From a virus (taxonomy: Duplodnaviria; Caudoviricetes): a stretch of DNA of 64,000 bases. The stretch lies in the IMG/VR virus record IMGVR_UViG_3300037424_000564, positions 128,001 through 192,000 of that record; one strand, given 5' to 3'. The translations under genes were made by a program, and so were the position numbers. Shown here one piece after another: positions 16,593 to 64,000 of this stretch. Position 1 is the stretch's first letter. Every line of letters begins with the position of its first letter. Below the pieces are notes generated by a model. The model ran no database searches and was not told the DNA's origin. It worked only from the letters and a program-made list of their open reading frames with translations.

Positions 16593-17707
16593 TCATCCTC
16601 CATATTAAACGCTTCATCATTTGCGTTTTTATATTCTTCAATAGCACAATCAACCAATAATGTTTTATCTATTCCCGGCTCAAATGTCATACCTTGAATA
16701 CACGCTATTATCAATTCAAGAGTAGATTCTTCTTCTATAAATTTTTCATCAAATGAACTAGAATCAAAGTCTTCAACAACATCTTGAGTCTGAACAACGC
16801 TAATTTTATAATCATTACATGATATGGATGATATACTAGCTTGATATGTTTCGAGTGCTAAAGGATTATCACTTTTTTTAACATATATTCTGACATAGTT
16901 ATGTTTAGCTATATCTAGGGATTCTTCTTTTGATATAGGTTTTGATTCAGATAACCCATCAACTGTTAAATCACCGTTGTCATACCATATCTTTATAAAT
17001 TTGGGATTTGTGTTATTTTCAATAAATCTCTTTCCAAAATTATCATCTAATACATAGAAACCTTTCTGTGTATTAAAATCATTCCAAGTTAATTGATATG
17101 GTGTGCCTATCATAATAACATTATCACGCTGAAAATTTATATGATAGTGTCCAGAGAATACATATTTATATTCCTTAAATTTAGTATGAGAGTATCCAGT
17201 TTTCCCTGTGATACCTTTTATCATAGGGAAATCTTTTAATTCAAGATGACCTATCAAAATATCACATTTTTTAGGAAATACCTCTTTATTGGTATCTACG
17301 ATCCAAGGAACAAATCCTATAGTATATTTTTCTATAATCTTTACTTCTTGTTTGTCATAAACGATTATATTTCTATATTCTCTTGTAGTTTTTGTTAAAG
17401 AATTTTGTGATATTTTATCTTTATAATAGGTATCATGGTTGCCTACCAGCATATGCAAAAATACATCATTAGAATCAAACCAAGCAAAAAATCTATCTTT
17501 AATTTCATCTAATATAAGCCAATCAATTTTTTCTCTGGAATGAAAAAAGTCGCCAGAGAAAATAACATTTTTGATTTCATTTTGGATGATATAGGGAAAG
17601 AATTGTTGTTCGAAAAAATTCATTTGTTCTTCAAACATTGAAACTGAAAAATTTGATATTCCAAAATGTATATCCGACACTAAAGCTATTTTGGGATTAA
17701 AATCCAT
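16589..17707 (-). CDS. gp47: gp47 recombination endonuclease subunit (SbcD/Mre11-like)
   Basis: SDIHFG, GDFFH, VGNHD, GHLE, SGHYH, GTPYQLTWND; likely start MDFNPK. Confidence 0.95.
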   Translation of the reverse strand: MDFNPKIALVSDIHFGISNFSVSMFEEQMNFFEQQFFPYIIQNEIKNVIFSGDFFHSREKIDWLILDEIKDRFFAWFDSNDVFLHMLVGNHDTYYKDKISQNSLTKTTREYRNIIVYDKQEVKIIEKYTIGFVPWIVDTNKEVFPKKCDILIGHLELKDFPMIKGITGKTGYSHTKFKEYKYVFSGHYHINFQRDNVIMIGTPYQLTWNDFNTQKGFYVLDDNFGKRFIENNTNPKFIKIWYDNGDLTVDGLSESKPISKEESLDIAKHNYVRIYVKKSDNPLALETYQASISSISCNDYKISVVQTQDVVEDFDSSSFDEKFIEEESTLELIIACIQGMTFEPGIDKTLLVDCAIEEYKNANDEAFNMEDE

Positions 17708-18197
17708 CGTTTTGTTCCTGTTTACACTCTTCTGCTGCATCTTCATCATAAAGATTTATTTTATCTAATGAATACATACTCTGTTCATTAATAGTATCAA
17801 ATTTTATTTTGGATTGAGTATCTTCGTTGTTCCAGATTTGACGAAAGGAAAATTCAGTGATTTGAGTGAAATATGAAAAGGCATTATTAGATTTTTCAAC
17901 ATTAAAATTATGGGCATATTTGACACAGGTTAAAATAGCTTCAGATCGCATTTCATCGATATAAGTATATCCCCTCCATCTTGGTTTCAATGCATAATGA
18001 TTTACTATTTTCATAATACAAATAGCAATATATTCTGTCATTGGTGTCCATTCTGTTCTATTCTTATCTCTATCATTTTCTGAATTCTCTGCTATCCATG
18101 CGGCTACTGCCTCTGTAAACTCTTTGTTGTTTACATAATGTGGATTTTCTGTAGCTCTTTTTGATAATTTTCTTTTTGGTTTTACTTTATCGACCAT
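17697..18197 (-). CDS. gp55: gp55 late sigma factor
   Basis: HYVNNKEF...YTYIDEM...YAHNFNVEKSNNAFSYFTQI; gp55-gp47-gp46 synteny. Confidence 0.93.
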   Translation of the reverse strand: MVDKVKPKRKLSKRATENPHYVNNKEFTEAVAAWIAENSENDRDKNRTEWTPMTEYIAICIMKIVNHYALKPRWRGYTYIDEMRSEAILTCVKYAHNFNVEKSNNAFSYFTQITEFSFRQIWNNEDTQSKIKFDTINEQSMYSLDKINLYDEDAAEECKQEQNDGF

Positions 18198-32950: not shown

Positions 32951-33493
32951 TTATTCCTCATACATATCTAGATTTTCAAAATAAGAATATGAAAAATCAA
33001 CTGTAAATTTTTCAATTTGGTCAGTATTAGTCATATCTAAATCAATAGCTGACATACTAATTGGGAATACGTCATAAAATTTATAGCTTGCTAACGATGA
33101 AACATCAGTTCTTCCTTTTTGATTTACGACTATTGTTGCCCCAAGCATATTAGCTGCATATGTTTTTTCGTTATTGTCTGCAACTCGTTGGCCACCAAAT
33201 TCCATCCATTTTTCAATTAAAGATTTACCAACAAAATCATAATCATTTAAAAATGTTATTGATAAGTTTTGTTTAGAATAATCTCCCGGTAATTTTAATT
33301 CCATACCATGAAACTTAATTGAGACTTCTCCTTGTGATCTACTAGGAATTGAAGCTGATTGTGCAGTCCAAGTAAAAATTTCTATTTTAGATGTATCTAT
33401 ACCTATAGTAGAAGGTATATAAACCTCTACTGTAAATCTATTAGGTCTAGCAAAATCTGAAAGTTGATTTTTAAAATCTTTAAGTTTAATCAT
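32951..33493 (-). CDS. gp19-family tail tube protein, paralog 1
   Basis: FARPNRFTV, SASIPS, LKLPGD, ITFLND, FPISMSAIDL, EKFTVDFSY. Confidence 0.88.
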   Translation of the reverse strand: MIKLKDFKNQLSDFARPNRFTVEVYIPSTIGIDTSKIEIFTWTAQSASIPSRSQGEVSIKFHGMELKLPGDYSKQNLSITFLNDYDFVGKSLIEKWMEFGGQRVADNNEKTYAANMLGATIVVNQKGRTDVSSLASYKFYDVFPISMSAIDLDMTNTDQIEKFTVDFSYSYFENLDMYEE

Positions 33494-33685
33494 TATTTCT
33501 TTTCATGATCAATTGAAATTATCTTATCGATGTTGATAAGACATTTATCTAAAATAATTACGTTATTATCAAAGTCAACAACTAAACCACTCAACATAGT
33601 TTTATTGTCTAAAAATACCTTTACAGGAATTTTTTTATATTGTGCATCATTTAAATATTCGTTATATGCCATTGTCTGTCTTCCT

Positions 33686-34637: not shown

Positions 34638-34645
34638 TATTTATA
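34638..34645 (-). promoter_or_regulatory. T4-type late promoter TATAAATA
   Basis: Exact consensus right after a terminator, upstream of tail genes. Confidence 0.75.
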
Positions 34646-34699: not shown

Positions 34700-35407
34700 T
34701 TAATTCATATCAAATTCATGTTTCTTAAATACTTTTACTACTATTTGACTATATCCACTTACCATTTGAACTGTTGCATCAGGTAATAATTGTTTTATAT
34801 AAGAAGCCAATTCACCAGAAGTAAATCCCTTTTGATAACTACCTCTAGTACGATCAAGTATTTCTCCATTTTCTTTATTTAATACTAAAGCAGTTTTGGC
34901 ACCTAGCACGTCAGCCTTTGAACGGACACCAATGATAGCAACTCCTTCAGGCTTTAAATGTGACCAAATGTCTTTAACGATGTGATCCCTTATATCTTGT
35001 TCTACTACATTTAAAACAGCAGAATTTATAATATAATCGTACTGTTTATTTGGAAGTGAATTTAAACCACTATGAGTAATATCTACAGCTTTGTTATGTG
35101 GAAATGGTTCGTATGATTCTATATGAGCATCATATTCATCTCTAAGCATTGCAGATCCCATACCAAGACCAGCAGAATAATCCAATCCAATACCTTCTTT
35201 GTTTTCAGGAGGAAGAGAATTAAAAAATTTAGCATATGATGCAGTTGTATTAGAACGTTGTGTTGGATGACCAGCATCAGGGTTGAATTTGATACCTTCT
35301 TTTTTTCGGATAGCATCTACTTCTTCTGAAGTGAAACCTCCTTTATGATCATCAAAATAGCTATTATCATCTTCACTTAACAACATATATAATGCAAATT
35401 TACTCAT
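34700..35407 (-). CDS. Class I SAM-dependent methyltransferase
   Basis: GLDYSAGLG motif I, YEPF, YDYIINSAVLNVVE; likely start MSKFALY. Confidence 0.8.
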   Translation of the reverse strand: MSKFALYMLLSEDDNSYFDDHKGGFTSEEVDAIRKKEGIKFNPDAGHPTQRSNTTASYAKFFNSLPPENKEGIGLDYSAGLGMGSAMLRDEYDAHIESYEPFPHNKAVDITHSGLNSLPNKQYDYIINSAVLNVVEQDIRDHIVKDIWSHLKPEGVAIIGVRSKADVLGAKTALVLNKENGEILDRTRGSYQKGFTSGELASYIKQLLPDATVQMVSGYSQIVVKVFKKHEFDMN

Positions 35408-35409
35408 AA

Positions 35410-35769
35410 TTAATCCTTCTTCTGCCATGCATGGTTGCAGTTTTTACATTCATACATTTTTTGTTTAGGATATTCTAATACTTTTTTGTGTCCACACTTA
35501 GGACATTTCATATCAGATGATTGATATTTATCTTTGTCTAATTTCTCAAGTTCTAAAAATAATTCAAATTTAGATTCTTTCATAACTTTTTCTCTTGTAC
35601 GATTGATAAGCATTTGACGATAACGCATATTATCAGGTGTTATACCTTCTTTATCAAGTTCAGATGTTACTGAACGCCAAACACGCTCAACATCATCAAC
35701 AGATTTTTTAATACCTTTTGCTTTTGCTTGTAAAGATAAATCCTTCCAATAATCTTCTACTTTACTCAT
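35410..35769 (-). CDS. Hypothetical protein with C-terminal zinc ribbon
   Basis: CPKCGH...YECKNCNHAW. Confidence 0.65.
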   Translation of the reverse strand: MSKVEDYWKDLSLQAKAKGIKKSVDDVERVWRSVTSELDKEGITPDNMRYRQMLINRTREKVMKESKFELFLELEKLDKDKYQSSDMKCPKCGHKKVLEYPKQKMYECKNCNHAWQKKD

Positions 35770-35785
35770 ATTATACATCCTTATT

Positions 35786-36619
35786 TTATATTGTATTTAA
35801 AATTTGGTTCATGTCATCCCAAGATGGTATTTTTTTCATTGCAGATGGTAATAAATCTTCTCTATGCAATCTCTTTATAAAATTTTGAATAAAAATTTCA
35901 TAATCATTTTTATTCTTGAAATTTTTGAAATTTGCCATTAATGACGCTTTTTTCTGGAATAATTTCTCCCAAGTCAAATTATCAAATTCTTTTTCTGATA
36001 ATTCTCTTTTAACTTGCTTTATTGCATGTATTTGAGAATTAATTTCAAAATTAGTATGATTAACACTATTAAATTTTCCAATTATCCCTTTAATATTATT
36101 ATATTCATTTGCTTTACTAATTTTTTTAGAGATAAAAGAATTATGTGTTACGTCATCAATCCAATGTACTAGTTCATGATAAATAGTTGCTTTTATTGAA
36201 TGTGAAGTAAATTCATTAAAAAATCTAGGAGTTTGGACATTTAAAAATTTTTCAATTGAACTTTTATTAAATTTTTGATTTCGTAGAAATGTAAATGCAG
36301 GCATATTTAATGATATTTGTAATGTATTATTATTAGGTCTATAAAAACTTCCATTATCAAATATACCAACACGTATAGATACTGGTTTTATTTCAGATGC
36401 TTCTATGCTTGAATTGTTTTTCAATTCAGTAGAAGGAAATATAGCAAACTCATACCCATCACTAGAGTTAGTTTTTCTTAAAATATCATATATATAATCT
36501 TCATCAATTTCTTGCAAAGCTTTGATAAATTTATTCATATTTGATTTATTGTAAATATAATCAACATCATCATTTAAATCATATGTTTTTTCGATAATAT
36601 ATTGTTCAAATTTACTCAT
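35786..36619 (-). CDS. HExxH zinc-metallopeptidase-like protein with capsid-targeting-like N-terminus
   Basis: TIYHELVHWID...E; starts MSKFEQYIIE. Confidence 0.6.
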   Translation of the reverse strand: MSKFEQYIIEKTYDLNDDVDYIYNKSNMNKFIKALQEIDEDYIYDILRKTNSSDGYEFAIFPSTELKNNSSIEASEIKPVSIRVGIFDNGSFYRPNNNTLQISLNMPAFTFLRNQKFNKSSIEKFLNVQTPRFFNEFTSHSIKATIYHELVHWIDDVTHNSFISKKISKANEYNNIKGIIGKFNSVNHTNFEINSQIHAIKQVKRELSEKEFDNLTWEKLFQKKASLMANFKNFKNKNDYEIFIQNFIKRLHREDLLPSAMKKIPSWDDMNQILNTI

Positions 36620-36833
36620 GTATTTTTTCTACTTTATAATTATTAGATTTAAAATGATTAGAAACTAACCCTACATTTCTATTTAGTTTTTTTGCTAACT
36701 GAGAAAGCATATTTCTATGTGCAGATACTTCACTTGGAGCAGATGTATATAGAATATGATTCTCTTGATACCAATTATAAGTACCTTTATACTTATTTTG
36801 TGCTTCAGTTAAAAACTGTTCGAATTTAGTCAT
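36612..36833 (-). CDS. Small protein with capsid-targeting-like N-terminus
   Basis: Starts MTKFEQFLTE; TATAAATA upstream at 36853-36860. Confidence 0.65.
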   Translation of the reverse strand: MTKFEQFLTEAQNKYKGTYNWYQENHILYTSAPSEVSAHRNMLSQLAKKLNRNVGLVSNHFKSNNYKVEKIHE

Positions 36834-36852
36834 TATATTATTCCTTTATATT

Positions 36853-36864
36853 TATTTATAAATA
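36853..36864. promoter_or_regulatory. Overlapping bidirectional late promoters
   Basis: TATTTATAAATA contains TATAAATA on both strands; a third minus-strand copy at 36931-36938. Confidence 0.7.
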
Positions 36865-36940
36865 ATGAGTGAGATTTGATATTAGTAGTATCAAATCAAC
36901 AGTAGGGTGAACTGCTGTCCTCATTATATCTATTTATAGG

Positions 36941-37708
36941 GTGAATACAATGAATAATTTCTATAATTATATCTATCTTGATCCAAGAAAATCTGGCAAA
37001 TTTACATATGAAGGCTTAAATTTTAGTTTATTGTACGAACCATATTACGTTGGTAAAGGTTGCAGAAATAGATATATTGTGCATTTAATGAATCATTCGT
37101 TAAAATATAAAAATTTTAAAAATTCTATAATTAAAAAATTGCTTTCAAGTAATATAGATAAACAAACATTAAAAACTTTTATAATGAAATTAAATGTAAA
37201 TACATCAAATATAGATGCTAATATAAATGAAACATTATTAATAACTACTATAGGAAGACGGAATAATAATACTGGTAGTTTATCTAATTTATGTGATGGT
37301 GGAGATGGAGTAGTTGGTCATATTAGTAATAAAAAATATAAAAAATATGAAGAATTATATGGCATTGAAAAGTCAAATTTAATTAAAGAAAAGATAAAAT
37401 ATATTGGTATTGATAACGGATTTTATAATAAAACCCATTCAGAAAAACAAAAACAACTTTGGACAAATACTCGTAAAGGAAAATTAAATAATAAAGCTAA
37501 AAAGTATAAATTTATATCACCTAATAATGTTGAATATATTGTACACGGAGAATTAATTAAATTTATAAAAGAACATAATTTACCAAAAAGACAACTACTT
37601 TATCATATGGATAGATATTGTAATGTTGGAATAATAAAAGATTTTATGATAATACCAACAAGAGGGAATGCTAAAATATTAATTGGTTGGATTATAACAC
37701 TACAGTAA
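36941..37708 (+). mobile_element. Free-standing GIY-YIG (Seg-like) homing endonuclease with NUMOD3 motif
   Basis: YNYIYLDPRK...EPYYVGKG..R; NGFYNKTHSEKQK; opposite strand to neighbours, very AT-rich. Confidence 0.85.
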
Positions 37709-38203
37709 TGGAGCTACTTGAGTATTCCAAAAATTTAAACTTCCTATTTTTGATTTTGGAATATTATTTTTATTTACTATAATAGTCCAATGTAATGAGT
37801 GTTGTTTACTTTGTTCTACATCAAACCCATCATAATTATCATCTACAAATTGCCATTTATGATGATAAATAATTTTACCACTTTTTTGATGTGTTTTATT
37901 ATTTACCCACTCATCTATTATAGGTTCGGGGTTACTATTAAAGTCACTAGATTTTATAAAAGAAAATATACCAGTTTTCGGATTATACTTCACTACCACA
38001 TAGTCATAATTTTTAGGGAGAGCATTCTTTGCATTTTGAAGTGGACCAGATGGAAACTGATCTTCATATTGACGATGAACATAAACCTCACCACCGATAA
38101 CTTTACCAATTGGATATCCAGCACCGCCACGTTTTAATCCAAGCTTTTTTAGCTTAGAATCAATATCTACATCTTCATTTATATATTGTTTAAATGAATA
38201 TAT
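37700..38203 (-). CDS. Protein resembling a non-catalytic domain of phosphorothioation-associated methyltransferases; non-ATG start
   Basis: Frame of track ORF 37700..37999 is open up to 38212: YSFKQYINE...GKVIGGEVYVHRQY...FSFIKSSDF..PEP...IYHHKWQFV; AAGGA SD at 38217-38213. Confidence 0.6.
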   Translation of the reverse strand: MYSFKQYINEDVDIDSKLKKLGLKRGGAGYPIGKVIGGEVYVHRQYEDQFPSGPLQNAKNALPKNYDYVVVKYNPKTGIFSFIKSSDFNSNPEPIIDEWVNNKTHQKSGKIIYHHKWQFVDDNYDGFDVEQSKQHSLHWTIIVNKNNIPKSKIGSLNFWNTQVAPLL

Positions 38204-38215
38204 AATCGTATGTCC

Positions 38216-38857
38216 TTAACTGTAGTATTTCTTTTGAACTTCTTCATCAAATCCATAATCAATAATGACTGGTTTGCCCTTATAGATTCCCCAATTGGCT
38301 AATCTAGTGAAGTCTCCTGTCAAGAAACCAAAATTACCCACCATATCTATTACTTCGTTATAAATTTCAGATTCTCTAATTTCTTCTTGTTCTTCTTCAG
38401 GTACACCATATGTGAAATTTCTATTATAACGATTTCCATTATTTTCAACTTCCCATTGTTGTAACATTTTTCCAAAATTAACAAAATTCAAACCAGTAAG
38501 AGCTTTAAATTTAGAAGCAGTCAATTTATCTGCTTTCTCGAACTGAATCCATCTTGGAGGGTCATTATCATCATCATGATCAATTAAAGGAATTAAAACA
38601 CTCCCATGCATATTATGTAAGCCATAATCTGCTTCTTTTTCATTCTGTGCTAATCCTTTAGCATTTTTTGCTACTTTAAGAACAGTTTCTCTACCCTCAA
38701 AAGGAATAATAAAAGCAACTCTAGAAGAGCCAGTTCCTATTTTAGCTGCTCGTTCTAAAGCATAATCTAATTGCTTTTTAAAAGATCCTTTAAATGCTTC
38801 TTTATCCCAATCAGGAGGTAAAGGCATTTCATTTAAAAATTGTGTAAATGATTTCAT
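38216..38857 (-). CDS. Protein-kinase-like fold protein with capsid-targeting-like N-terminus
   Basis: IGTGSSRVAF Gly loop, VLKVAK, QNEKE, D...NWG, VIIDYG; starts MKSFTQFLNE. Confidence 0.8.
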   Translation of the reverse strand: MKSFTQFLNEMPLPPDWDKEAFKGSFKKQLDYALERAAKIGTGSSRVAFIIPFEGRETVLKVAKNAKGLAQNEKEADYGLHNMHGSVLIPLIDHDDDNDPPRWIQFEKADKLTASKFKALTGLNFVNFGKMLQQWEVENNGNRYNRNFTYGVPEEEQEEIRESEIYNEVIDMVGNFGFLTGDFTRLANWGIYKGKPVIIDYGFDEEVQKKYYS

Positions 38858-38893
38858 AAATTTCCTCATATATAGTTTACTTTATTTATTAAA

Positions 38894-38932
38894 AAATAAA
38901 AAGGCATATCGTTAAGACATGCCTTTTTATTT
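38894..38932 (-). terminator. Intrinsic terminator
   Basis: AATAAAAAGGCAT...ATGCCTTTTTATT. Confidence 0.8.
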
Positions 38933-38950
38933 TCTCTATTATTTTAATTA

Positions 38951-47267: not shown

Positions 47268-48701
47268 TTACCAAGATTGACCAAAGTTATAACCACCACC
47301 GAAAGAAGAACCAGTGAAGTCAACAAGGAATTTACGATAGTAGTTTTGAACTCCGTACATATTTCCGGCGATTGCATCTCTAGTCATGAAACCAATTTTT
47401 GGTTGGAAAGTAACTGGATCAACAACTTTTTGCATTTGTAGAGGAACATATGGGCAGTAGATGATACCTGAGTCATAAGTATTGCTACCTTTGTAACCAA
47501 GAGTTACATAATCAGTAAATGCAAATGTATCCATGTAAACAGTGAAACGACCGTCTAGAGTACCAACTTTAGCTACACCTAGAACTGGTTTAACTTGACC
47601 GGGAACAGAAGCATACATGAAACCTTGAAGAGTTTCAAGAGCCGCAACGACATTAGATGAAGCAACAATGAAGTTAGCAGAACCACGGCGAGTTGAAAGA
47701 GCAATTTGGTTTGCTTCACGAAGAAGACGATTGTATAGGGTACGGATTTTCTCTGCTTCCCAACGACCATCAGGAGTAGTACCAGTAGCTGAATAAGTTA
47801 CTAGACCAGCACCACCATAAGACCAAGTAGGAGTTACAGTAGCTTTAGCATTCATAAGGTCAATAAGTTCACGGTCAAGTTCAGCACCGATCTCATATTC
47901 CATGATGTTGATTAGTTCTTTCTCAGCATCAAGTCCATGAATGTTTTTTAAATCTTGTGCCATTTCTAGGGTGTATTCAGCTTTCAAACGACGAGTTTGA
48001 GCTTCTACACTAGCACGTTCAATTTTTAGGTTGAGGTTTTTGATATTAGCGCCAGCAGTTTCACCAGCAGCAGTGGTCCAAGTAGTAGCACCAGCATTAC
48101 CAGCATATCCTTTGAAGATTAGGTTGAAACCTGCTTCATTTTGGAATCCAGCAACAGTAGAAGTAGCTGAGAAACCAGTACCAGTTACAACACCACCAGC
48201 AGTTACCGCAGTAATAGCATCAGCACCTGAACTAAAAGATACTAGAGTACGACCAGCTTCTGAATACTTAACAGTACCAGATACACCGTTTGCAACAATA
48301 ATTGAAGAAACAGTAGGGAATGCAGTAAGATCAGCTAGGATAAGTCCAACGTCAGTGAATACAGCACCACCAGTAGTCAAGCCACGGTTGAATGCACCAC
48401 GATCAGTAGGAGTTTGACCAGTACCATCGCCATATACATAACGTAGAGCGTATGCGTAACCAGTAGGTTGTTTAAGAGCTTGAACGCCAACTAGTTCATT
48501 AGCTAGAAGGTTAGGGAAAATACGACGAACGGCTGGAACGAGAATAGGGGTATATTGAGCGATATCAGATGCAACACTGCTCTCATTCATGCTTACTTCT
48601 TGGTTTTCAAGAAGTTGAGCCATAACTTCTTTGGCTTGTACTAAAGGAGCCTTGTCGCTCTCAATTAATTCTGCCCATTTTTCTACGAGAATATTACTCA
48701 T
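47268..48701 (-). CDS. gp23: Major capsid protein gp23
   Basis: EKWA, VRRIFPNL.ANELVGVQ, EAQTRRLKAEYTLEMAQDLKNIHGLDAE, GIIYCPYVPL, FQPKIGFMTR. Confidence 0.97.
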   Translation of the reverse strand: MSNILVEKWAELIESDKAPLVQAKEVMAQLLENQEVSMNESSVASDIAQYTPILVPAVRRIFPNLLANELVGVQALKQPTGYAYALRYVYGDGTGQTPTDRGAFNRGLTTGGAVFTDVGLILADLTAFPTVSSIIVANGVSGTVKYSEAGRTLVSFSSGADAITAVTAGGVVTGTGFSATSTVAGFQNEAGFNLIFKGYAGNAGATTWTTAAGETAGANIKNLNLKIERASVEAQTRRLKAEYTLEMAQDLKNIHGLDAEKELINIMEYEIGAELDRELIDLMNAKATVTPTWSYGGAGLVTYSATGTTPDGRWEAEKIRTLYNRLLREANQIALSTRRGSANFIVASSNVVAALETLQGFMYASVPGQVKPVLGVAKVGTLDGRFTVYMDTFAFTDYVTLGYKGSNTYDSGIIYCPYVPLQMQKVVDPVTFQPKIGFMTRDAIAGNMYGVQNYYRKFLVDFTGSSFGGGYNFGQSW

Positions 48702-48723: not shown

Positions 48724-49407
48724 TTATTTTAATTGTGAAAGATACTGTTTCATGGTATCTGTATGTTTTTTATCTTCAACGATTACAGTTTCTTTTTTTT
48801 CTTCAAGCTTTTCTTCAAGCTTTTCTACAGTAGTTTGAATTTTGGTAACAAAAATATCTAGTTTTGATTCAAACAATTCTTCGTCAAAATCAACAGTTTT
48901 TGCCATTTCAACAAGTTTTTCACGTTCTACATCAGTTGCAAGTTTTTCACATGCTTCAGAAATCATAGCTGCTTTTTTTACTAGTTGAGTTTCTTTACGA
49001 GATTCAATAAGTTTATTTACCAAAGTAGTGTTTTCTGTTTTCAATTCTTCAATTTCATCTTCTGAACTAATTGACTCGTCATTTAGAGAAATATTGAAAG
49101 CTTCTACCATTTGTTGAAAGTTACGAAGTACTTTTTCTGCTAGTTTAACTTTAGCGAAATCTTCAACTACTTGCTCATTTTCTTTGATGTACTCTTTGCA
49201 GAAATAATCAATATAGCTATCAACTTGTTCTACTAGATCTTCTTTGAACTCAGTAATTTCAGTGCGATTTGATTCTTCTAATTCCTTTTCCTTACTCTTG
49301 ATTGCTTCATTAATAGCTGATTCAAATAAAGTAGACATTTGAAGTTTTACTTCATCAGTAAGTAGTTCAGACTCAATAGATTCAAATAATTCTTTGAGTT
49401 GTTCCAT
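48724..49407 (-). CDS. gp22: Prohead scaffolding protein gp22
   Basis: Acidic coiled coil, LVEQVDSYIDY...YIKEN; position between gp21 and gp23. Confidence 0.9.
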   Translation of the reverse strand: MEQLKELFESIESELLTDEVKLQMSTLFESAINEAIKSKEKELEESNRTEITEFKEDLVEQVDSYIDYFCKEYIKENEQVVEDFAKVKLAEKVLRNFQQMVEAFNISLNDESISSEDEIEELKTENTTLVNKLIESRKETQLVKKAAMISEACEKLATDVEREKLVEMAKTVDFDEELFESKLDIFVTKIQTTVEKLEEKLEEKKETVIVEDKKHTDTMKQYLSQLK

Positions 49408-49524: not shown

Positions 49525-50208
49525 TTATTTAATCTTTGCATTAATTTTTTCTAGATTATCTTTAAATAGTTTTAGAAATGCAGCCTGTCGATCTTCAATA
49601 GAAAATTTATTCTCTATTACAATAGTATCAATATCTTTTTTTGTTTTTTCTATATCTTGTTCTGATAAAATACCATCGACCATAACCCATTCTTTGCCTT
49701 CAGTAATACCATCAACCCAACAACCGGGACCAGAAGGATCTGAAACAATATCAACACAAATAAGACGATAATCTTGTTGAACAACGCCATTCTTTAAAGA
49801 ACCAACACCACGACTTGAAACTCCTAATTTGACACCACTTTCCATTAAAGATTTAGCAATCTTTCCACAAGGAGTATCTAGGATCTGTGCCTTGCCAATA
49901 GCAGTATTACCATTCATTGATAATTCTTTGATTAAATGTGAAACTCTATCAAGATTAATCTCTGAAGATGGAGGATGACCCAATTCTCCTAATGCACGAT
50001 TCTCTTTAATTTTCGTATTAATATGTGCAGCTACTTCTTTCTCAATAATAGCTCTAGGATAAATACGTTTATTCCCATTCATAACTTCTGACTGTAAAAA
50101 TGGTCCTTTGATGTAAAAGTTTTTAACTTTAGCCATTCCTTCTTGGACTTCGATGATTTCAGACTCCATAAGAGCTAAATCAATTTCTTCAATAATAAGT
50201 TCTGCCAT
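49525..50208 (-). CDS. gp21: Prohead protease gp21
   Basis: IKGPFLQSE..NGNKRIYP, ALGELGHP, LGVSSRGVGSL, DIVSDPS. Confidence 0.96.
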   Translation of the reverse strand: MAELIIEEIDLALMESEIIEVQEGMAKVKNFYIKGPFLQSEVMNGNKRIYPRAIIEKEVAAHINTKIKENRALGELGHPPSSEINLDRVSHLIKELSMNGNTAIGKAQILDTPCGKIAKSLMESGVKLGVSSRGVGSLKNGVVQQDYRLICVDIVSDPSGPGCWVDGITEGKEWVMVDGILSEQDIEKTKKDIDTIVIENKFSIEDRQAAFLKLFKDNLEKINAKIK

Positions 50209-51108: not shown

Positions 51109-52854
51109 TTAGAAATTAATTGCTTTTGGTATATTAATTAACGGTACTGTTGGTTTAATTCTAACAGCTACTTCTATCATTCCACCTAATGTACTTAGAT
51201 CAGGTGGCACCCCTGTCATACCTGCTGTATAAGATGTTATAGCAATAGAAGATATTATAATTTTTTGTGCTGATTGTAATATATCGGTGTATATGTTGGG
51301 TATCTGTAACTGATTGTAATTATTATAATAACCATATGCATTATTATGATATTCACCACCACTAGTCATAATTGTTAAATAAATTTCTCCTTTGATAATG
51401 TTATATGATAATATTTCATTAAATGTCACTATATCATTAAATGCATCAAATGGCGTATGTCCTGCATATGTTAATTTTTTTAGAAACATGTCAGATAAAA
51501 TTGTTATTGTATTACCATTGTTTACAACATATGGTGCTTTAGTGGTAGGATCTACTAAATGAGAATCAATTATAATACATTGACTTCTATCTATCATAAA
51601 ATAGTCGTTATTCCATCCCCAGAGTTGACCATTACAAGATTGGATAGCACCAGAATCCTCGGAATTCAAATTAAAAAAATGATAAGGAAATATAGGAGTA
51701 TTATTATTACTATCGAGTAGTTCATTAAATGGTGTATTTAATGTATAAGATTCAAATAAATTACTGTTAGCATCAACACAATTAATATATTTATTTGTAG
51801 TGCTTTCTATGAGTAAGTCATCAGTTGTATAGTAAGTGAATCTACAATTATTATATTCAGTGTTTGTATATAAATTAATAACATCTGTTAAAATACAATT
51901 AGTAAATATAACACCATCAGCAACGTTAATACGACATAGAGTTGAATTTAACACAATTGTCATAGGAGCTAAATAGAATGGATCACCGTTATGTAATTGA
52001 TTTACGTTGGTTATTAACCAACGTAGACCTACATAATCATAAACAAACCTACCTACTCCAAAACCATCATCATGAAAATCCAAATCAATATTCTTAAATG
52101 TTGCATTTATTAATATCGATGAATAATCCTCATATGTAATGCAATCATATTGAGGATAGTCGGTTAGTGTTTGTTGAATAGTCAAATTATGCATATTAAA
52201 ATTTGTGAATGGTTCTGATAACAGAGTATTAACACCATTTGCATTTGTAAACTTTTCCCCAAGATATCCACTTTGACAATATATAATAGCATTTCCTGAT
52301 AGAATAGAATTACCACTAAGCTCTACACTCTTGATTTGAGAAGGAACAGATTCGCTACCATTAAGTAGAATATAATATTCCATCAAATCTGATTCTGCTG
52401 CCAATGCATTAAAGGCATCATACATTTCAATAGAATCTTCCCATTCGAAATATATATAATCAGTACCTGTAGTTATGTATGGTACACCATCAGGAAAATT
52501 TATAATATCAGAATCTAAAAACAAAAATGAATAATCAGAAAAGTCTAGTTTTGTTTTTTGTGTATTACCGCCACATATAACAATTGGGGTACTAGCATTC
52601 ATTTCATCAGCGTCAAATATGATATTATCAGTTAATGTATGAGTACCTTCATCTAGGTAAAGTTTATATTTACCAGCAGAAACAGCTTCATTTAATGTTA
52701 GATAATCTCCGCTACCAGTAGGACTAATTAAAACAAATCCATTAGGTGCATTGCCAGAAGGTAGAGCATCAATAAGGTCAGTAAAATCTTGTTGAGTTGG
52801 TTTATCGCCAGTTTCGAATTTAGTTTTTAAGTATTCTTTTATTTCAGTTGCCAT
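51109..52854 (-). CDS. Virion fibre-like protein
   Basis: N-terminal LKTKFETGDKPTQQDFTDLID module, beta-rich body. Confidence 0.6.
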   Translation of the reverse strand: MATEIKEYLKTKFETGDKPTQQDFTDLIDALPSGNAPNGFVLISPTGSGDYLTLNEAVSAGKYKLYLDEGTHTLTDNIIFDADEMNASTPIVICGGNTQKTKLDFSDYSFLFLDSDIINFPDGVPYITTGTDYIYFEWEDSIEMYDAFNALAAESDLMEYYILLNGSESVPSQIKSVELSGNSILSGNAIIYCQSGYLGEKFTNANGVNTLLSEPFTNFNMHNLTIQQTLTDYPQYDCITYEDYSSILINATFKNIDLDFHDDGFGVGRFVYDYVGLRWLITNVNQLHNGDPFYLAPMTIVLNSTLCRINVADGVIFTNCILTDVINLYTNTEYNNCRFTYYTTDDLLIESTTNKYINCVDANSNLFESYTLNTPFNELLDSNNNTPIFPYHFFNLNSEDSGAIQSCNGQLWGWNNDYFMIDRSQCIIIDSHLVDPTTKAPYVVNNGNTITILSDMFLKKLTYAGHTPFDAFNDIVTFNEILSYNIIKGEIYLTIMTSGGEYHNNAYGYYNNYNQLQIPNIYTDILQSAQKIIISSIAITSYTAGMTGVPPDLSTLGGMIEVAVRIKPTVPLINIPKAINF

Positions 52855-52873
52855 TTATATATCCTTTATATTA

Positions 52874-54637
52874 TTAAACATAGAAGTCAGGTGATTTTTG
52901 TTTTGTACCAATTCCAGTAGATTGATAATGGATATCAGTGTAATGTAAAAACACACTACCAGTCCCACCAACAATATCATATGAACTCAAATAACATCTA
53001 ACTAATATAACAGAATCTGGTTCTATTAATGAGTTATTGATTTGTGATGCAGATGGAGAATTAGAAGAAAGTTGAACTTCTGCAATCATATGTCTATATT
53101 GACCAGAAGCACCAATAGATGCTAATTGTGTTACACTTGTATTTATAGGATTAATAAAAGTTTCTTGTTGATGTCCTTTTGCTGCGGTAACATTAAATCC
53201 CCAAGTAACAGATCCACTAGTGACACCAGAAGTAGTATGACTCCAATGGGTGTGAATAAATAGATCAGTTCCTTTCACATAATCATGTGGTATATGATAA
53301 TTGAACCATATTTCTTTATTAAGGGAAAATTCATATTGACTTATGTTACCATTATAAATTGACCATAGAGGATTATTCAACCCACTTCCTCTTACTGTAG
53401 ATATTCCAATTATATCTTGCCACGGATATGTAGGAGTTATTAAATCAACTTTAATACCAGCAGTAGCACTTTTAGAAAGTAGTGGAGTTCCTGAATGTAT
53501 ATTATTATATTCGGATTGATTTACATGATAGAATTCTCCTGCACTTGTAGGCAAACCACCTTGTAAATTTGTCAAAAGATTATGATCAACTATATTAGTG
53601 TTTAGAGAAATACCAGCACCAAAATTGCTTACATCTATTATTTTAACTTTAGTTGGATCGGATAGATCAGTAACACCTTGTTGCATAATAATTTTAGCTC
53701 TTAGAATTGATCCTTCCAATGATTGTAAATTTTCAATTCCGATATCTTGATTTTCAGTATCAGATGATGCGATTGCGTCAGATAAAGAGCCATATACATT
53801 ATGCCCATATATAACATCAACTACATCAGAACTAGGAAAGTAATATATATACTGAATTGAAAATTTATTACTAGGAACTGCTGTTAATATTCCATCGACA
53901 TCGTAAAAATTTGGTTGAAGTTGATTGAATTCTGTAGTTAAGTATTGATTGGATAAATGGTAATTATAAGAATTTATTGCAGTAGCAGGATTACTATATA
54001 TAATATTAGGAGATAAAGGTTGTTCACTAAAATTAGATGAATATCTAAATGATATACCAGCACTACGATTAAGAGTTAACGTAGAATCATAAGCAGTAAA
54101 TGAATTACCTTGCTTATTCAAAGACCCCATAGTATCTAAAAAATCTATCAGAGTATTACCTAGATATAAAGCTGGTGATGAATATTGTCCTACCCCTGCA
54201 ATTGTAGTATGGTCAAATGTCCAAGCTCTACCTAAAATTGCAATAGTTCTTTTTTCAAGTGCGGTGAAATTCTCAGAAAAAATAAAAGTAGCAGATCCAA
54301 TTCCAGATCTTTGAATGCCTACCCAAGGTCTTGTATTAATTGTTATATTAGGATCAACATTTTGAGCATTCCAAGACAGAACTTCCACTATAGGATTATT
54401 AAAATCAGAAAGATCTACATATAAGGATTTACCTTCAGCGATATCAATAGTTGTGTTGTCGGGATTTATAGTAATCATACCACCACTTAATACACCAGTA
54501 GTCAATCCCAATCTTCCCTCGTCACCTGATACAACATCAGATCCAAATAATCCATTATCCAACCAAGTAGCATAATCTTCGCTTGTTATTTTATAACCTG
54601 TAACAAATTTAGATTTTAGTTCTTCTCTTATTCCCAT
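52874..54637 (-). CDS. Virion fibre-like protein
   Basis: N-terminal LKSKFVTGYKITSEDYATWLD module; C-terminal HIPHDY..GTDLFIHTHW domain. Confidence 0.6.
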   Translation of the reverse strand: MGIREELKSKFVTGYKITSEDYATWLDNGLFGSDVVSGDEGRLGLTTGVLSGGMITINPDNTTIDIAEGKSLYVDLSDFNNPIVEVLSWNAQNVDPNITINTRPWVGIQRSGIGSATFIFSENFTALEKRTIAILGRAWTFDHTTIAGVGQYSSPALYLGNTLIDFLDTMGSLNKQGNSFTAYDSTLTLNRSAGISFRYSSNFSEQPLSPNIIYSNPATAINSYNYHLSNQYLTTEFNQLQPNFYDVDGILTAVPSNKFSIQYIYYFPSSDVVDVIYGHNVYGSLSDAIASSDTENQDIGIENLQSLEGSILRAKIIMQQGVTDLSDPTKVKIIDVSNFGAGISLNTNIVDHNLLTNLQGGLPTSAGEFYHVNQSEYNNIHSGTPLLSKSATAGIKVDLITPTYPWQDIIGISTVRGSGLNNPLWSIYNGNISQYEFSLNKEIWFNYHIPHDYVKGTDLFIHTHWSHTTSGVTSGSVTWGFNVTAAKGHQQETFINPINTSVTQLASIGASGQYRHMIAEVQLSSNSPSASQINNSLIEPDSVILVRCYLSSYDIVGGTGSVFLHYTDIHYQSTGIGTKQKSPDFYV

Positions 54638-59703: not shown

Positions 59704-59925
59704 ATGACGATATCTGAATTTTTCGACCCAAGTAAACAATCACATATTACAGCATTTGAATGTTTAATGAATTCTGGTACATGGCCTGTAAATTTTTTAC
59801 CTAATGATATTTGTTTTTCACCAACTTGGCCATATGACGTTACTCAAAAAATGGTAATCTTTTTAATTAAAGAAAATAAAACATTGAAAGAAAAAGTAAG
59901 AATACTTAAGAAATATTATTACTAG
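59704..59925 (+). CDS. Small hypothetical protein
   Basis: 73-aa ORF directly after the CoaD fusion. Confidence 0.55.
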   Translation: MTISEFFDPSKQSHITAFECLMNSGTWPVNFLPNDICFSPTWPYDVTQKMVIFLIKENKTLKEKVRILKKYYY

Positions 59926-60526
59926 CAAACGTGGCAGGTAAATCAAAAACTTCAATTTTATCATTTGGGGCGACTACTTGTTTATCAATAATCATTCTCA
60001 TATTAAAAAGAACAATCATAACTGTATCACTCCATCCAAACGGATGATCTACTGACAAATAATCAATTCCTTTTAACACTAGAAAGTTCCTAAACGCATT
60101 TGTTTGGGAACTTTTTATTGCTTCATAGTTCACCATCATATTAATGAAATTACTAGCTGGAACTTCACCTTTGTCCTTGTACCTAGAAAGAGCCTGAAGT
60201 ATTTCTTTTCTCTTATTTTTTATAATATAATCATCGACAAATTCCAAGATATCAGCTAAAGGAATGGATGCATCATTTGCATCCATTCCTTTTTTGATTG
60301 TTACCATATAAAGCTTGCGACTACCTTTAGAATATTTCTGTGCTGTTTGATAATGAGTTATTAAATAAAGGCCGGGGCCATACTCGAATCTACCTTTTTT
60401 CTGAATTTTGGTTTCATCATAAGCATCATCTAAATTTCCACCATGCCAAAGACTCATTGTATTTTGAGTAGTAGATGGAGATATAATCTTTTTAGCTTCT
60501 GTTATAAATTGTTTGAATGGTTTCAT
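59906..60526 (-). CDS. ADP-ribosyltransferase-like protein with capsid-targeting-like N-terminus
   Basis: LWHGG...YGPGLYL...TAQKYS...GIDY; starts MKPFKQFITE. Confidence 0.6.
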   Translation of the reverse strand: MKPFKQFITEAKKIISPSTTQNTMSLWHGGNLDDAYDETKIQKKGRFEYGPGLYLITHYQTAQKYSKGSRKLYMVTIKKGMDANDASIPLADILEFVDDYIIKNKRKEILQALSRYKDKGEVPASNFINMMVNYEAIKSSQTNAFRNFLVLKGIDYLSVDHPFGWSDTVMIVLFNMRMIIDKQVVAPNDKIEVFDLPATFASNNIS

Positions 60527-62980: not shown

Positions 62981-63451
62981 TTATAGAAAAAATGGGCAAT
63001 CTTTTTCTGTTAATATCAAAAATTCAACATCTATACCTGCTTGTTTTTTTTCTGCTATAATTTGTCTAGTTGTATCCCATTTTGCTTGATTTATTATATA
63101 TGTTTTAACTTGTTTAAAATAATTTTTAGTTTTACGTTTAGGTACTTTAGGAACATCAACTTGACTTTGTGGTTTGATTTCAACCCAGAATTCTTTTGTT
63201 TTGCCTGATGCTGTTATAGCCTTAAATGTGAAATCCATAAAATATCTATGGTATTTTCCATCATCAGGTCGTATATATTTAATTATAGTAGATTCACTTG
63301 TCCATTCAATAATATTTGTATTCTTGTCAAGATATTGAGATATAAATTTAATCTCCCAACCGCTTCTAGCAGTAATTGGACGAGTTCCTGTATATTTCTC
63401 AGGATTCTTTAAATGAGGATACATATCATTTATTTGGTAATAGTGACTCAT
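62981..63451 (-). CDS. gp4: gp4 head completion nuclease
   Basis: KNPEKY.G...I.ARSGWE, EWTSE, PDDGKYHRYFMDF, VEIKP, NQAKW, LTEKD. Confidence 0.92.
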   Translation of the reverse strand: MSHYYQINDMYPHLKNPEKYTGTRPITARSGWEIKFISQYLDKNTNIIEWTSESTIIKYIRPDDGKYHRYFMDFTFKAITASGKTKEFWVEIKPQSQVDVPKVPKRKTKNYFKQVKTYIINQAKWDTTRQIIAEKKQAGIDVEFLILTEKDCPFFL

Positions 63452-64000
63452 TATTTTTTCTCTTTTGTTTTTCCTGAAGGCATGTAATTACCAATTACTT
63501 TAACTACTTTGAATGCTTGTTTAGTTAAAAATACAGTTTGAGTTGGTTCATTAGGATGTATAATAGCTAGACCGGGATCTATTAATACATCATATCCCAA
63601 ATCTCTTATTTGTTTATTCCATTTATTAGGATTAGGACTAGGACTATTTGAACCTTTACCACCAGCTAGAATATAAGTAAACCAAAAGAAAATTCCACCG
63701 GGATATTTTTTACGAATTGCTTCTTTTGTACCTTTGGTGTATATAAATTCTGTGTCGATTTCTTCAGATTTAGATGATTTGCTTAATTCTTTTTTTAAAT
63801 AATCAATAAAGAGTTTAAAAAAGTTTTTTGTATTTTCTATCGCAACTTGTTTATCAGATCTTTTATACTGTTTCAAACTTTTACCAAAAGTTTCATTCCA
63901 TGCGTTATCAAACAGTAGTTGAAACGTATCATAAACATAATGTCCTTCACTATATTTTAGAATAGGCTTTATTTCCTGCATGAAATATTCAGCAATAAAA
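63451..64000 (-). CDS. Hypothetical, possibly ART-like, protein; open at window edge
   Basis: Frame extends upstream of the ATG at 63981 as FIAEYF; C-terminal LGYDVLIDPG..IIHPNEPTQTVF. Confidence 0.5.
   Translation of the reverse strand, partial: FIAEYFMQEIKPILKYSEGHYVYDTFQLLFDNAWNETFGKSLKQYKRSDKQVAIENTKNFFKLFIDYLKKELSKSSKSEEIDTEFIYTKGTKEAIRKKYPGGIFFWFTYILAGGKGSNSPSPNPNKWNKQIRDLGYDVLIDPGLAIIHPNEPTQTVFLTKQAFKVVKVIGNYMPSGKTKEKK

Follow-up and report, generated by a model that had tools for sequence, protein, structure and literature searches.

A capsid-targeting-like N-terminal decapeptide on predicted enzymes of a distant T4-like phage

Several neighboring genes of a virus encode proteins of dissimilar predicted function that nevertheless begin with nearly the same ten residues, which raises the question of what such a shared N-terminus does. 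The genes lie in IMG/VR record IMGVR_UViG_3300037424_000564, in a window of 64,000 nucleotides (the whole stretch analyzed: bases 128001–192000 of one 205,056-bp contig; 30.5% G+C). An earlier note, made from the letters of this DNA, had proposed that a decapeptide recurring in 34700–38857 matches the capsid-targeting sequence (CTS) of the T4 internal proteins (IPs), and that the phage packages and injects a methyltransferase (MTase), a protease, a kinase and an ADP-ribosyltransferase (ART). After following up these claims, we consider the shared decapeptide a likely counterpart of the T4 CTS in this phage, one that would load a kit of predicted enzymes into the head. Positions below are those of the window unless given as genome positions.

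The shared N-terminal tag and the T4 capsid-targeting sequence

The N-termini that had been listed for the enzyme cluster could all be read directly at their genes: MKSFTQFLNE, (M)YSFKQYINE, MTKFEQFLTE, MSKFEQYIIE and, on the predicted MTase, MSKFALYMLLSE. The tagged genes had also been called consecutive, which is true only in part. Five tagged genes do lie in 34700–38857, but an intervening zinc-ribbon gene (35410–35769, minus strand; zinc-ribbon matches below cut-off) is untagged. Its start, MSKVEDYWKD, resembles the tag, and we rejected it because it lacks [LI]-x-E, as does the start of its orthologue (MSTVSDYWKS) in L024, a 128-kb relative of this phage. The pattern had been said to recur at 60526, and MKPFKQFITE is indeed present there. 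Every gene carrying one of these N-termini, in the block and at 60526, is on the minus strand.

Scanning the whole genome, as had been proposed, we found the consensus M-x-x-F-x-Q-[FY]-[LI]-x-E or a 12-residue variant at the head of 12 genes: the five in the block, the one at 60526, and six outside the window (genome positions 13921, 13420, 24013, 196576, 196926 and 197772). Ten open reading frames (ORFs) have the pattern F-x-x-[FY]-[LI]-x-E at their start, with F as residue 4, against 0.019 expected from the genome's own amino-acid frequencies. Inside proteins the same pattern appears at the chance rate (three observed, 3.4 expected). Positions 1 (M), 4 (F), 7 ([FY]), 8 ([LI]) and 10 (E) are invariant or nearly so, and conservation is at background from residue 11 on. 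The 12-residue variants, MSKFALYMLLSE and MRFNNFKKFLRE, keep F4 and an aromatic residue at position 7 and have the putative cut site further out, like T4 IPI. Once trimmed, the tagged proteins would have a computed mass of 7–32 kDa. In AF2 models the leaders are mostly of the lowest confidence, with pLDDT below 50 at residues 1–3 and 5–10 of the kinase-like protein and at residues 1–9 of the protein with an HExxH motif.

In the T4 record, ipII and ipIII begin with MKTYQEFIAE followed by A, and ipI with MKTFKEF...ITE followed by A (full start MKTFKEFTSTTTPVSTITE, then A). Mutagenesis of T4 IPIII assigns capsid targeting to residues 4 and 7 and processing to residues 8 and 10 (PMC9026906). The proposed match to this sequence is borne out: positions 4, 7, 8 and 10 are kept in the decapeptide, and the same genome holds gp21-, gp22- and gp23-like genes.

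Judged by its genes, the phage is a distant relative of T4. It is a T4-like myophage whose head and tail genes in the window matched phrogs in a profile search. Its nearest cultured relatives by capsid protein are T4-like phages of Vibrio and Campylobacter, at only about 35% identity, and a DNA search with the block against cultured phages gave no match. The minus strand holds 307 of the 339 genes in a crude genome-wide ORF set, including the head genes that bear on the tag. The predicted prohead (head maturation) protease, which is gp21-like (49525–50208, minus strand; phrog_207, 2.9e-65), shares 39% identity with T4 gp21. Its H78 and S131 align with H85 and S140 of T4, which we take to be the catalytic pair of the protease. 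Beside it on the same strand are a gp22-like scaffold (48724–49407; phrog_237, 2e-27) and a gp23-like major capsid protein (47268–48701; phrog_138, 2.5e-105). The window further contains gp20-like portal, gp2-like and gp4-like proteins and a tail tube protein.

The distribution of [LI]-x-E in these head proteins bears on how the protease might cut. The scaffold carries 17 copies in 227 residues, about sixfold the density of 1.3 per 100 residues that approximate frequencies of L+I and of E would give by our estimate. In the capsid protein, LVE, LIE and LLE fall within the first 32 residues and no [LI]-x-E follows over the next 230, and in an alignment the cleavage site of T4 gp23 (LTE before A) lies opposite MNE before S. 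Because of this distribution, together with the aligned gp23 site, gp21-type cleavage specificity seems to be conserved in this phage.

Some tag-like stretches were set apart from the 12 genes. FIAE at the window edge, which the earlier note had counted as a tag, is internal to a 376-aa ORF (...DDVESFIAEYFMQEIK) and not N-terminal. The 3' part of this ORF occupies 63451–64000 on the minus strand, and the ORF runs past the edge; its start, MLQFKLFFEARK... (MLQFKLFFE...), is only tag-like and is kept as a possible tag only. No family match was found for it. At residue 23 it has a further tag-like stretch (MKTLEPYLDE), and it lies directly upstream of the gp4-like gene; its product may be one more protein of the head interior, made with a long propeptide. 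The loose pattern was also matched by an ORF of 45 aa (genome position 27750), which we rejected as tagged. We also noted a possible second class of leaders ending in [LI]-x-E, comprising MNFKETLALLQE and MDFNKTLSLIME (genome 12456–13192) and MDFNKVLEKMRMNE (genome about 100644). The genes of the first two follow tagged genes downstream of a gene that by eye is gp24-like, and the MDFNKVLEKMRMNE start has the late-promoter box TATAAATA 33 nt upstream.

Predicted functions of the tagged proteins

Behind these similar leaders stand dissimilar domains. The best characterized belongs to a 213-aa kinase-like protein (38219–38857, minus strand), in which the leader MKSFTQFLNE (38828–38857) is followed by a conserved domain beginning MPLPPDWDK...; the Shine–Dalgarno sequence GAGG favors the ATG at 38857 over that at 38869. 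We found at least 359 homologues, nearly all metagenomic and almost none annotated. Residues G41, G43, K61, E75, D182, N188, D200 and G202 are invariant in 67 sequences, a set that corresponds to the Gly-rich loop, the ATP-anchoring Lys, the helix-C Glu, the catalytic Asp...Asn and the metal-binding Asp-x-Gly. When the AF2 model (pLDDT 89.7) was compared with the PDB by Foldseek, the 50 listed matches were kinase-fold proteins (PRPK/Bud32, MPS1, CK2, APH and others), of which 44 reached E<=1e-3; probabilities were 0.99–1.00 and TM 0.26–0.47. The model strongly supports a minimal kinase-like fold of Bud32/PRPK-like size.

The junction between leader and kinase-like domain is conserved among the homologues. 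A Glu directly precedes the domain in 112 of the 115 sequences with a recognizable PLPxDW anchor, and P3 is L (91) or I (19). The leaders are mostly 9–10 residues long and fall into the classes MxxFxQ[FY][IL]xE, MK[LIV]xx[IL][IL]xE and MRAxEFIxE, and where another domain is fused in front of the kinase-like domain, [LI]-x-E is still found at the junction. A tagged paralogue is encoded at genome position 197772. The domain also occurs within ORFs of about 1800 residues on IMG/VR contigs, heading some of them (one ORF starts with MTYDEFLVF); such ORFs may encode cargo of the polyvalent or polyprotein kind.

The MTase gene (34700–35407, minus strand; 235 aa) bears the 12-residue leader MSKFALYMLLSE. 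Its product scored 27.6 bits against Methyltransf_23, a thin margin over the cut-off of 27, and the orthologue scored 27.4 bits. The L024 orthologue is 70% identical and has the leader MSKISKFDLFLYE. The stretch LDYSAGLG forms the glycine-rich motif for S-adenosylmethionine (SAM). The Atlas score was 0.97, and the ten best family-bearing matches all fall into viral class I MTase clusters of a single family or clan. Assignment to the class I SAM methyltransferases is supported by these comparisons. In our own reading the protein lacks a DPPY-type motif and is therefore probably not a typical N6/N4 DNA methylase. No relatives in IMG/VR were found by the pattern method.

The tagged gene at 59906–60526 (minus strand; 206 aa, leader MKPFKQFITE), whose start overlaps the end of the portal gene, encodes the ART-like protein. 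It is matched from residue 1 by phrog_2667, 'internal head protein', and its 157 homologues show the same leader classes by eye, uncounted. Against PF13151/PF18760 (DUF3990 / ART-PolyVal) it scored 15.2 bits versus a cut-off of 31.2, which is sub-threshold for ART-PolyVal. At E<=0.01, DUF3990 is matched by 43 of 60 family members and ART-PolyVal by 17 of 60. We looked for an H-Y-[EDQ] triad and found H28 and Y54 invariant. A tblastn search of cultured phages gave no match, and a profile search of PDB sequences returned nothing. A relationship to DUF3990/ART-PolyVal proteins is moderately supported by these family matches. The tagged protein at genome position 13921 aligns weakly to the same family (hhalign 52%).

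The HExxH protein (35786–36619, minus strand; 277 aa) has the leader MSKFEQYIIE, then a domain beginning KTYDL.... Its family comprises at least 666 representative clusters in a profile search, almost none of them annotated. E10 is invariant, as are H148, E149, H152 and E192 in 70 sequences, and HExxHW is kept in 147 of 150. When we looked for a third ligand, the motif was found together with the downstream E192. A Glu precedes the KT[FY] anchor in 74 of 75 homologues, one of whose leaders begins MKTYQEF as in T4. The Atlas folds nearest to the model are mostly zincin families, including MPTase-PolyVal/ArdC, at TM of only 0.31–0.42; the best match in a wide VIA-align search (Z 5.6) covered the helical C-terminus only and was not significant. 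We regard a zincin-like protein, a candidate gluzincin-like metallopeptidase, as fairly likely but only suggested. The enzyme labels of the earlier note fared unequally: that of the kinase-like protein is strong, that of the MTase good and that of the ART-like protein moderate, whereas 'peptidase' corresponds only to a motif and weak fold neighbors.

The other two tagged genes of the block are of different kinds. One (36612–36833, minus strand) encodes a small basic protein of 73 aa with the leader MTKFEQFLTE and a computed mature mass of 7.4 kDa and pI of 9.7; its L024 orthologue starts MTKFEQYLEE. The other (37700–38203, minus strand; 167 aa, phrog_16075 domain) starts with ATA and reads (M)YSFKQYINE. 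Its L024 orthologue starts with ATG and MISFKDFINE and has 272 aa with a C-terminal GNAT domain (Pfam, 22.0 bits versus a cut-off of 20.7). The two are 54% identical over residues 1–169 only, and the gene here stops where GNAT begins. The place of the GNAT part is occupied by a GIY-YIG homing-endonuclease-like gene on the plus strand (36941–37708; LEM-3_GIY-YIG, 35.7 bits), which is absent from the syntenic block of L024 and is not part of the tag system. The tagged gene is probably a decaying copy. The IMG/VR relatives of its product lie within unrelated, untagged, larger proteins and are uninformative on the tag.

Genomic context and leaders in other phages

The earlier note had placed TATAAATA late promoters in the block. 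The claim holds for a T4-type box at 36853–36860 (minus strand), 20 nt upstream of the ATG at 36833, which heads a tightly coupled run of the small basic protein, HExxH, zinc-ribbon and MTase genes that overlap or abut. Further coding-strand copies are at 36931–36938 and 34638–34645. It does not extend to an enrichment across the whole window, where 19 copies were found and 19.8 expected. Genome-wide, 18 of the 40 coding-strand copies are intergenic, versus 8.3% of the genome that is non-coding, and most intergenic copies lie 20–60 nt before a start codon. This placement fits T4-type late promoters.

Just upstream of the kinase-like gene, at 38891–38935 on the minus strand, folding revealed a hairpin of 20 bp (-23.3 kcal/mol, z -8.2) and, after it, a U-run; AATAAATA comes next. 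The predicted structure is likely a terminator marking where the block starts; a consensus terminator scan of the block found none. Two tagged genes directly follow the gene that we read by eye as gp24-like. Taken from gene order and promoter placement, a late and head-linked context of the tagged genes is suggested.

Some observations adjoin this context. A possible gp55-like ORF (17697–18197) is suggested by sequence reading only, with no Pfam match. Directly before the tagged gene at genome position 24013 is a gene (genome 24025–24657) for a 210-aa protein in which a long stretch is rich in Asp/Glu and the tail is basic. Two TATAAATA boxes lie 42–48 nt upstream of this gene, and its product looks like a prohead-core or internal protein. 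Several intergenic minus-strand TATAAATA boxes stand ahead of GIY-YIG-like genes (genome 11006 and 68803), an arrangement like that of the T4 seg genes.

Leaders of this kind are found in other phages. The syntenic block of L024 contains seven genes with tags, among them orthologues that start with ATG, and its gene order differs from that in this phage. In Alishewanella phage Slicko01, six consecutive genes annotated 'hypothetical' start with MKIxxLYESxLxE, and the last is kinase-like; three genes with this leader have [YF]H[SA]T soon after it and may be ART-like. Relatives in IMG/VR have the leader MRAxEFIxE. The kinase-like homologue of Xanthomonas phage XacN1, ORF170, has MKQVRLSQFLSE followed by APLP, and MITFNEHLVE is the leader of the HExxH gene in a KVP40-like Vibrio phage. 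In Microcystis phage Mel-JY01, genes starting MIKLKSLLQE adjoin an HExxH copy. Read across these genomes, leader type tracks phage lineage and not cargo.

Elsewhere in the window, a 59-aa protein (33493–33672, minus strand) adjoins the tail-tube gene, and its L024 orthologue has a weak Pfam match to Hfq (Sm-like). Two large neighboring genes on the minus strand, 51109–52854 (581 aa) and 52874–54637 (587 aa), encode proteins with similar N-termini, MATEIKEYLKTKFETGDKPTQQDF and MGIREELKSKFVTGYKITSEDY. The two may be paralogues that serve as fibre or decoration proteins; a phrogs search with the 581-aa product returned nothing.

Alternative readings and comparison with known systems

If the decapeptide acts as a CTS, the tagged genes would be expressed late, together with the head proteins, and aromatic residues 4 and 7 would dock their products onto the prohead's gp22-type scaffolding core. 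Cleavage after Glu10 of [LI]-x-E by the gp21-type protease would then free the mature proteins inside the head, and these would leave with the DNA at infection. The predicted cargo includes a minimal kinase-like enzyme and its paralogue, a class I SAM methyltransferase, a DUF3990/ART-PolyVal-type protein and the HExxH protein, along with small basic proteins and the decayed gene whose orthologue bears GNAT. Packaging, cleavage, ejection, enzyme activity and host targets are all steps that we infer.

Several results weigh against this account. An exact TATAAATA box is close upstream of only one of the 12 tagged genes. The Glu before the conserved domains could partly reflect the domains themselves. 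The ATA start and truncation of the gene at 38203 mean that not all copies need be functional. The ART-like protein itself falls below the Pfam cut-off, and its catalytic Glu was not identified. For the HExxH protein, Foldseek found nothing in the PDB at E<=0.001, Pfam gave nothing consistent on 70 members, and the profile met only chance S100 matches among PDB sequences. Finally, the main text of the XacN1 virion study does not mention ORF170.

One could accept the tags as real propeptides and still doubt delivery, with the proteins serving only as parts of the assembly or scaffold core, or acting on DNA in the head. The T4 CTS targets the scaffold core, several of whose proteins (gp67, gp68 and gp22) are purely morphogenetic (PMC9026906), and the small basic tagged proteins, with computed pI of 9.5–9.7, could simply neutralize DNA. 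However, kinase-, MTase- and ART-type domains have no obvious assembly role and are typical of proteins predicted to be injected (PMC5512222), and the T4 IPs, Alt and CTS fusions are ejected (PMC9026906). We therefore think a purely internal role unlikely.

Less likely again is that the N-terminal peptide addresses other machinery, as a membrane or secretion signal, a degradation tag or the site of a modifying enzyme. A radical-SAM gene does lie a few kb away in the window, but the peptide is too little hydrophobic for a signal peptide, mirrors the T4 CTS position by position and always ends in a gp21-type site, and in the lineages checked it co-occurs with gp21/gp22-type head genes.

There is very little to recommend the idea that the similarity is a nucleic-acid feature, either a translation-initiation region or a recombination joint for swapping cassettes, and that the peptide is functionless: T-even IP loci are described as recombination-prone and polymorphic (Repoila 1994, as cited in PMC9026906) and block order differs between this phage and L024, but synonymous codons vary among the tags (TTT/TTC, TTA/CTA/ATT/ATA, CAA/CAG), with third-position identity no higher than at positions 1 and 2, and selection has therefore acted on the peptide, not the DNA. 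In distant lineages, too, the sequences differ and the amino-acid pattern is retained. Recombination may still take place at the tag, but it would then result from the tag and not have given rise to it.

We conclude that a CTS-like packaging tag is the likely explanation of the shared decapeptide in this phage. A broader proposal is that T4-type phages of many lineages, environmental and cultured, load and inject free-standing enzymes, among them methyltransferases, GNATs, ART-like proteins, a zincin-like peptidase and a minimal protein kinase, by means of short, lineage-specific cleavable tags at the N-terminus; this we put forward tentatively, as somewhat short of an even chance. If it is true, the 'injected proteome' of an uncultured phage could be read from sequence, and virion delivery of a protein kinase by a bacterial virus would represent a novel form of early host takeover. 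Provided that the tags function as they do in T4, one regular expression and a gp21 homologue would predict proteins co-delivered with the DNA, including those of the kinase-like and HExxH families. The predicted enzymes are candidates for host takeover in the first minute or for anti-defence roles. The tag variants could serve as natural alternatives in T4-style protein-delivery vectors, and the domain repertoire of polyvalent proteins would be linked to a defined packaging signal.

The concept itself is already known from the T4 CTS and from polyvalent proteins; the cargo here is much wider, and no new principle is involved. Among the papers searched that contain the phrase 'capsid targeting sequence', titles and abstracts show no work on such enzyme tags in distant T4-like phages. 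That diverse proteins of T-even phages share only the CTS is established (PMC9026906). T4 IPI, IPII and IPIII (Mullaney & Black 1996; PMC3012670, PMC9026906) and the tagged proteins of this phage have in common the aromatic residues at 4 and 7, [LI] at 8 and Glu10. In both phages an N-terminal propeptide of 10–19 residues stands on unrelated cargo that shares the tag only, longer variants occur (IPI in T4), and a gp21-type protease and a gp22-type scaffold are encoded in the same genome. T4 has three CTS genes, whereas at least 12 genes here bear the predicted tag. The T4 IPs are small and non-enzymatic, whereas several cargoes here are enzyme-like. T4 Alt is an enzyme that is packaged, processed by gp21 and injected, and a cargo of the ART superfamily is predicted here too. 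Alt belongs to the R-S-E Alt/VIP2 clade, whereas the protein here is a putative relative of DUF3990/ART-PolyVal (H-Y-type) proteins with a canonical tag; to our knowledge, Alt is without a consensus CTS.

In the ejection proteins of phiKZ and SPN3US the propeptides are reportedly long and unlike one another, and no short N-terminal tag is shared. These giant phages also have many head-internal proteins that are trimmed by a gp21-related protease at x-E (PMC5694885, PMC7411985). The polyvalent proteins of phages and conjugative elements are predicted to be packaged in virions and injected early (Iyer et al. 2017; PMC5512222), and their repertoire includes a zincin-like metallopeptidase, ART-PolyVal, a truncated Ser/Thr/Tyr-type kinase, GNAT and a methyltransferase (PMC5512222), the same domain repertoire as in the tagged set here. 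However, a polyvalent protein is one giant polypeptide, targeted through fusion to MuF, portal or other structural domains, whereas the proteins described here are separate and small, each with its own cleavable tag, and would be targeted through the CTS.

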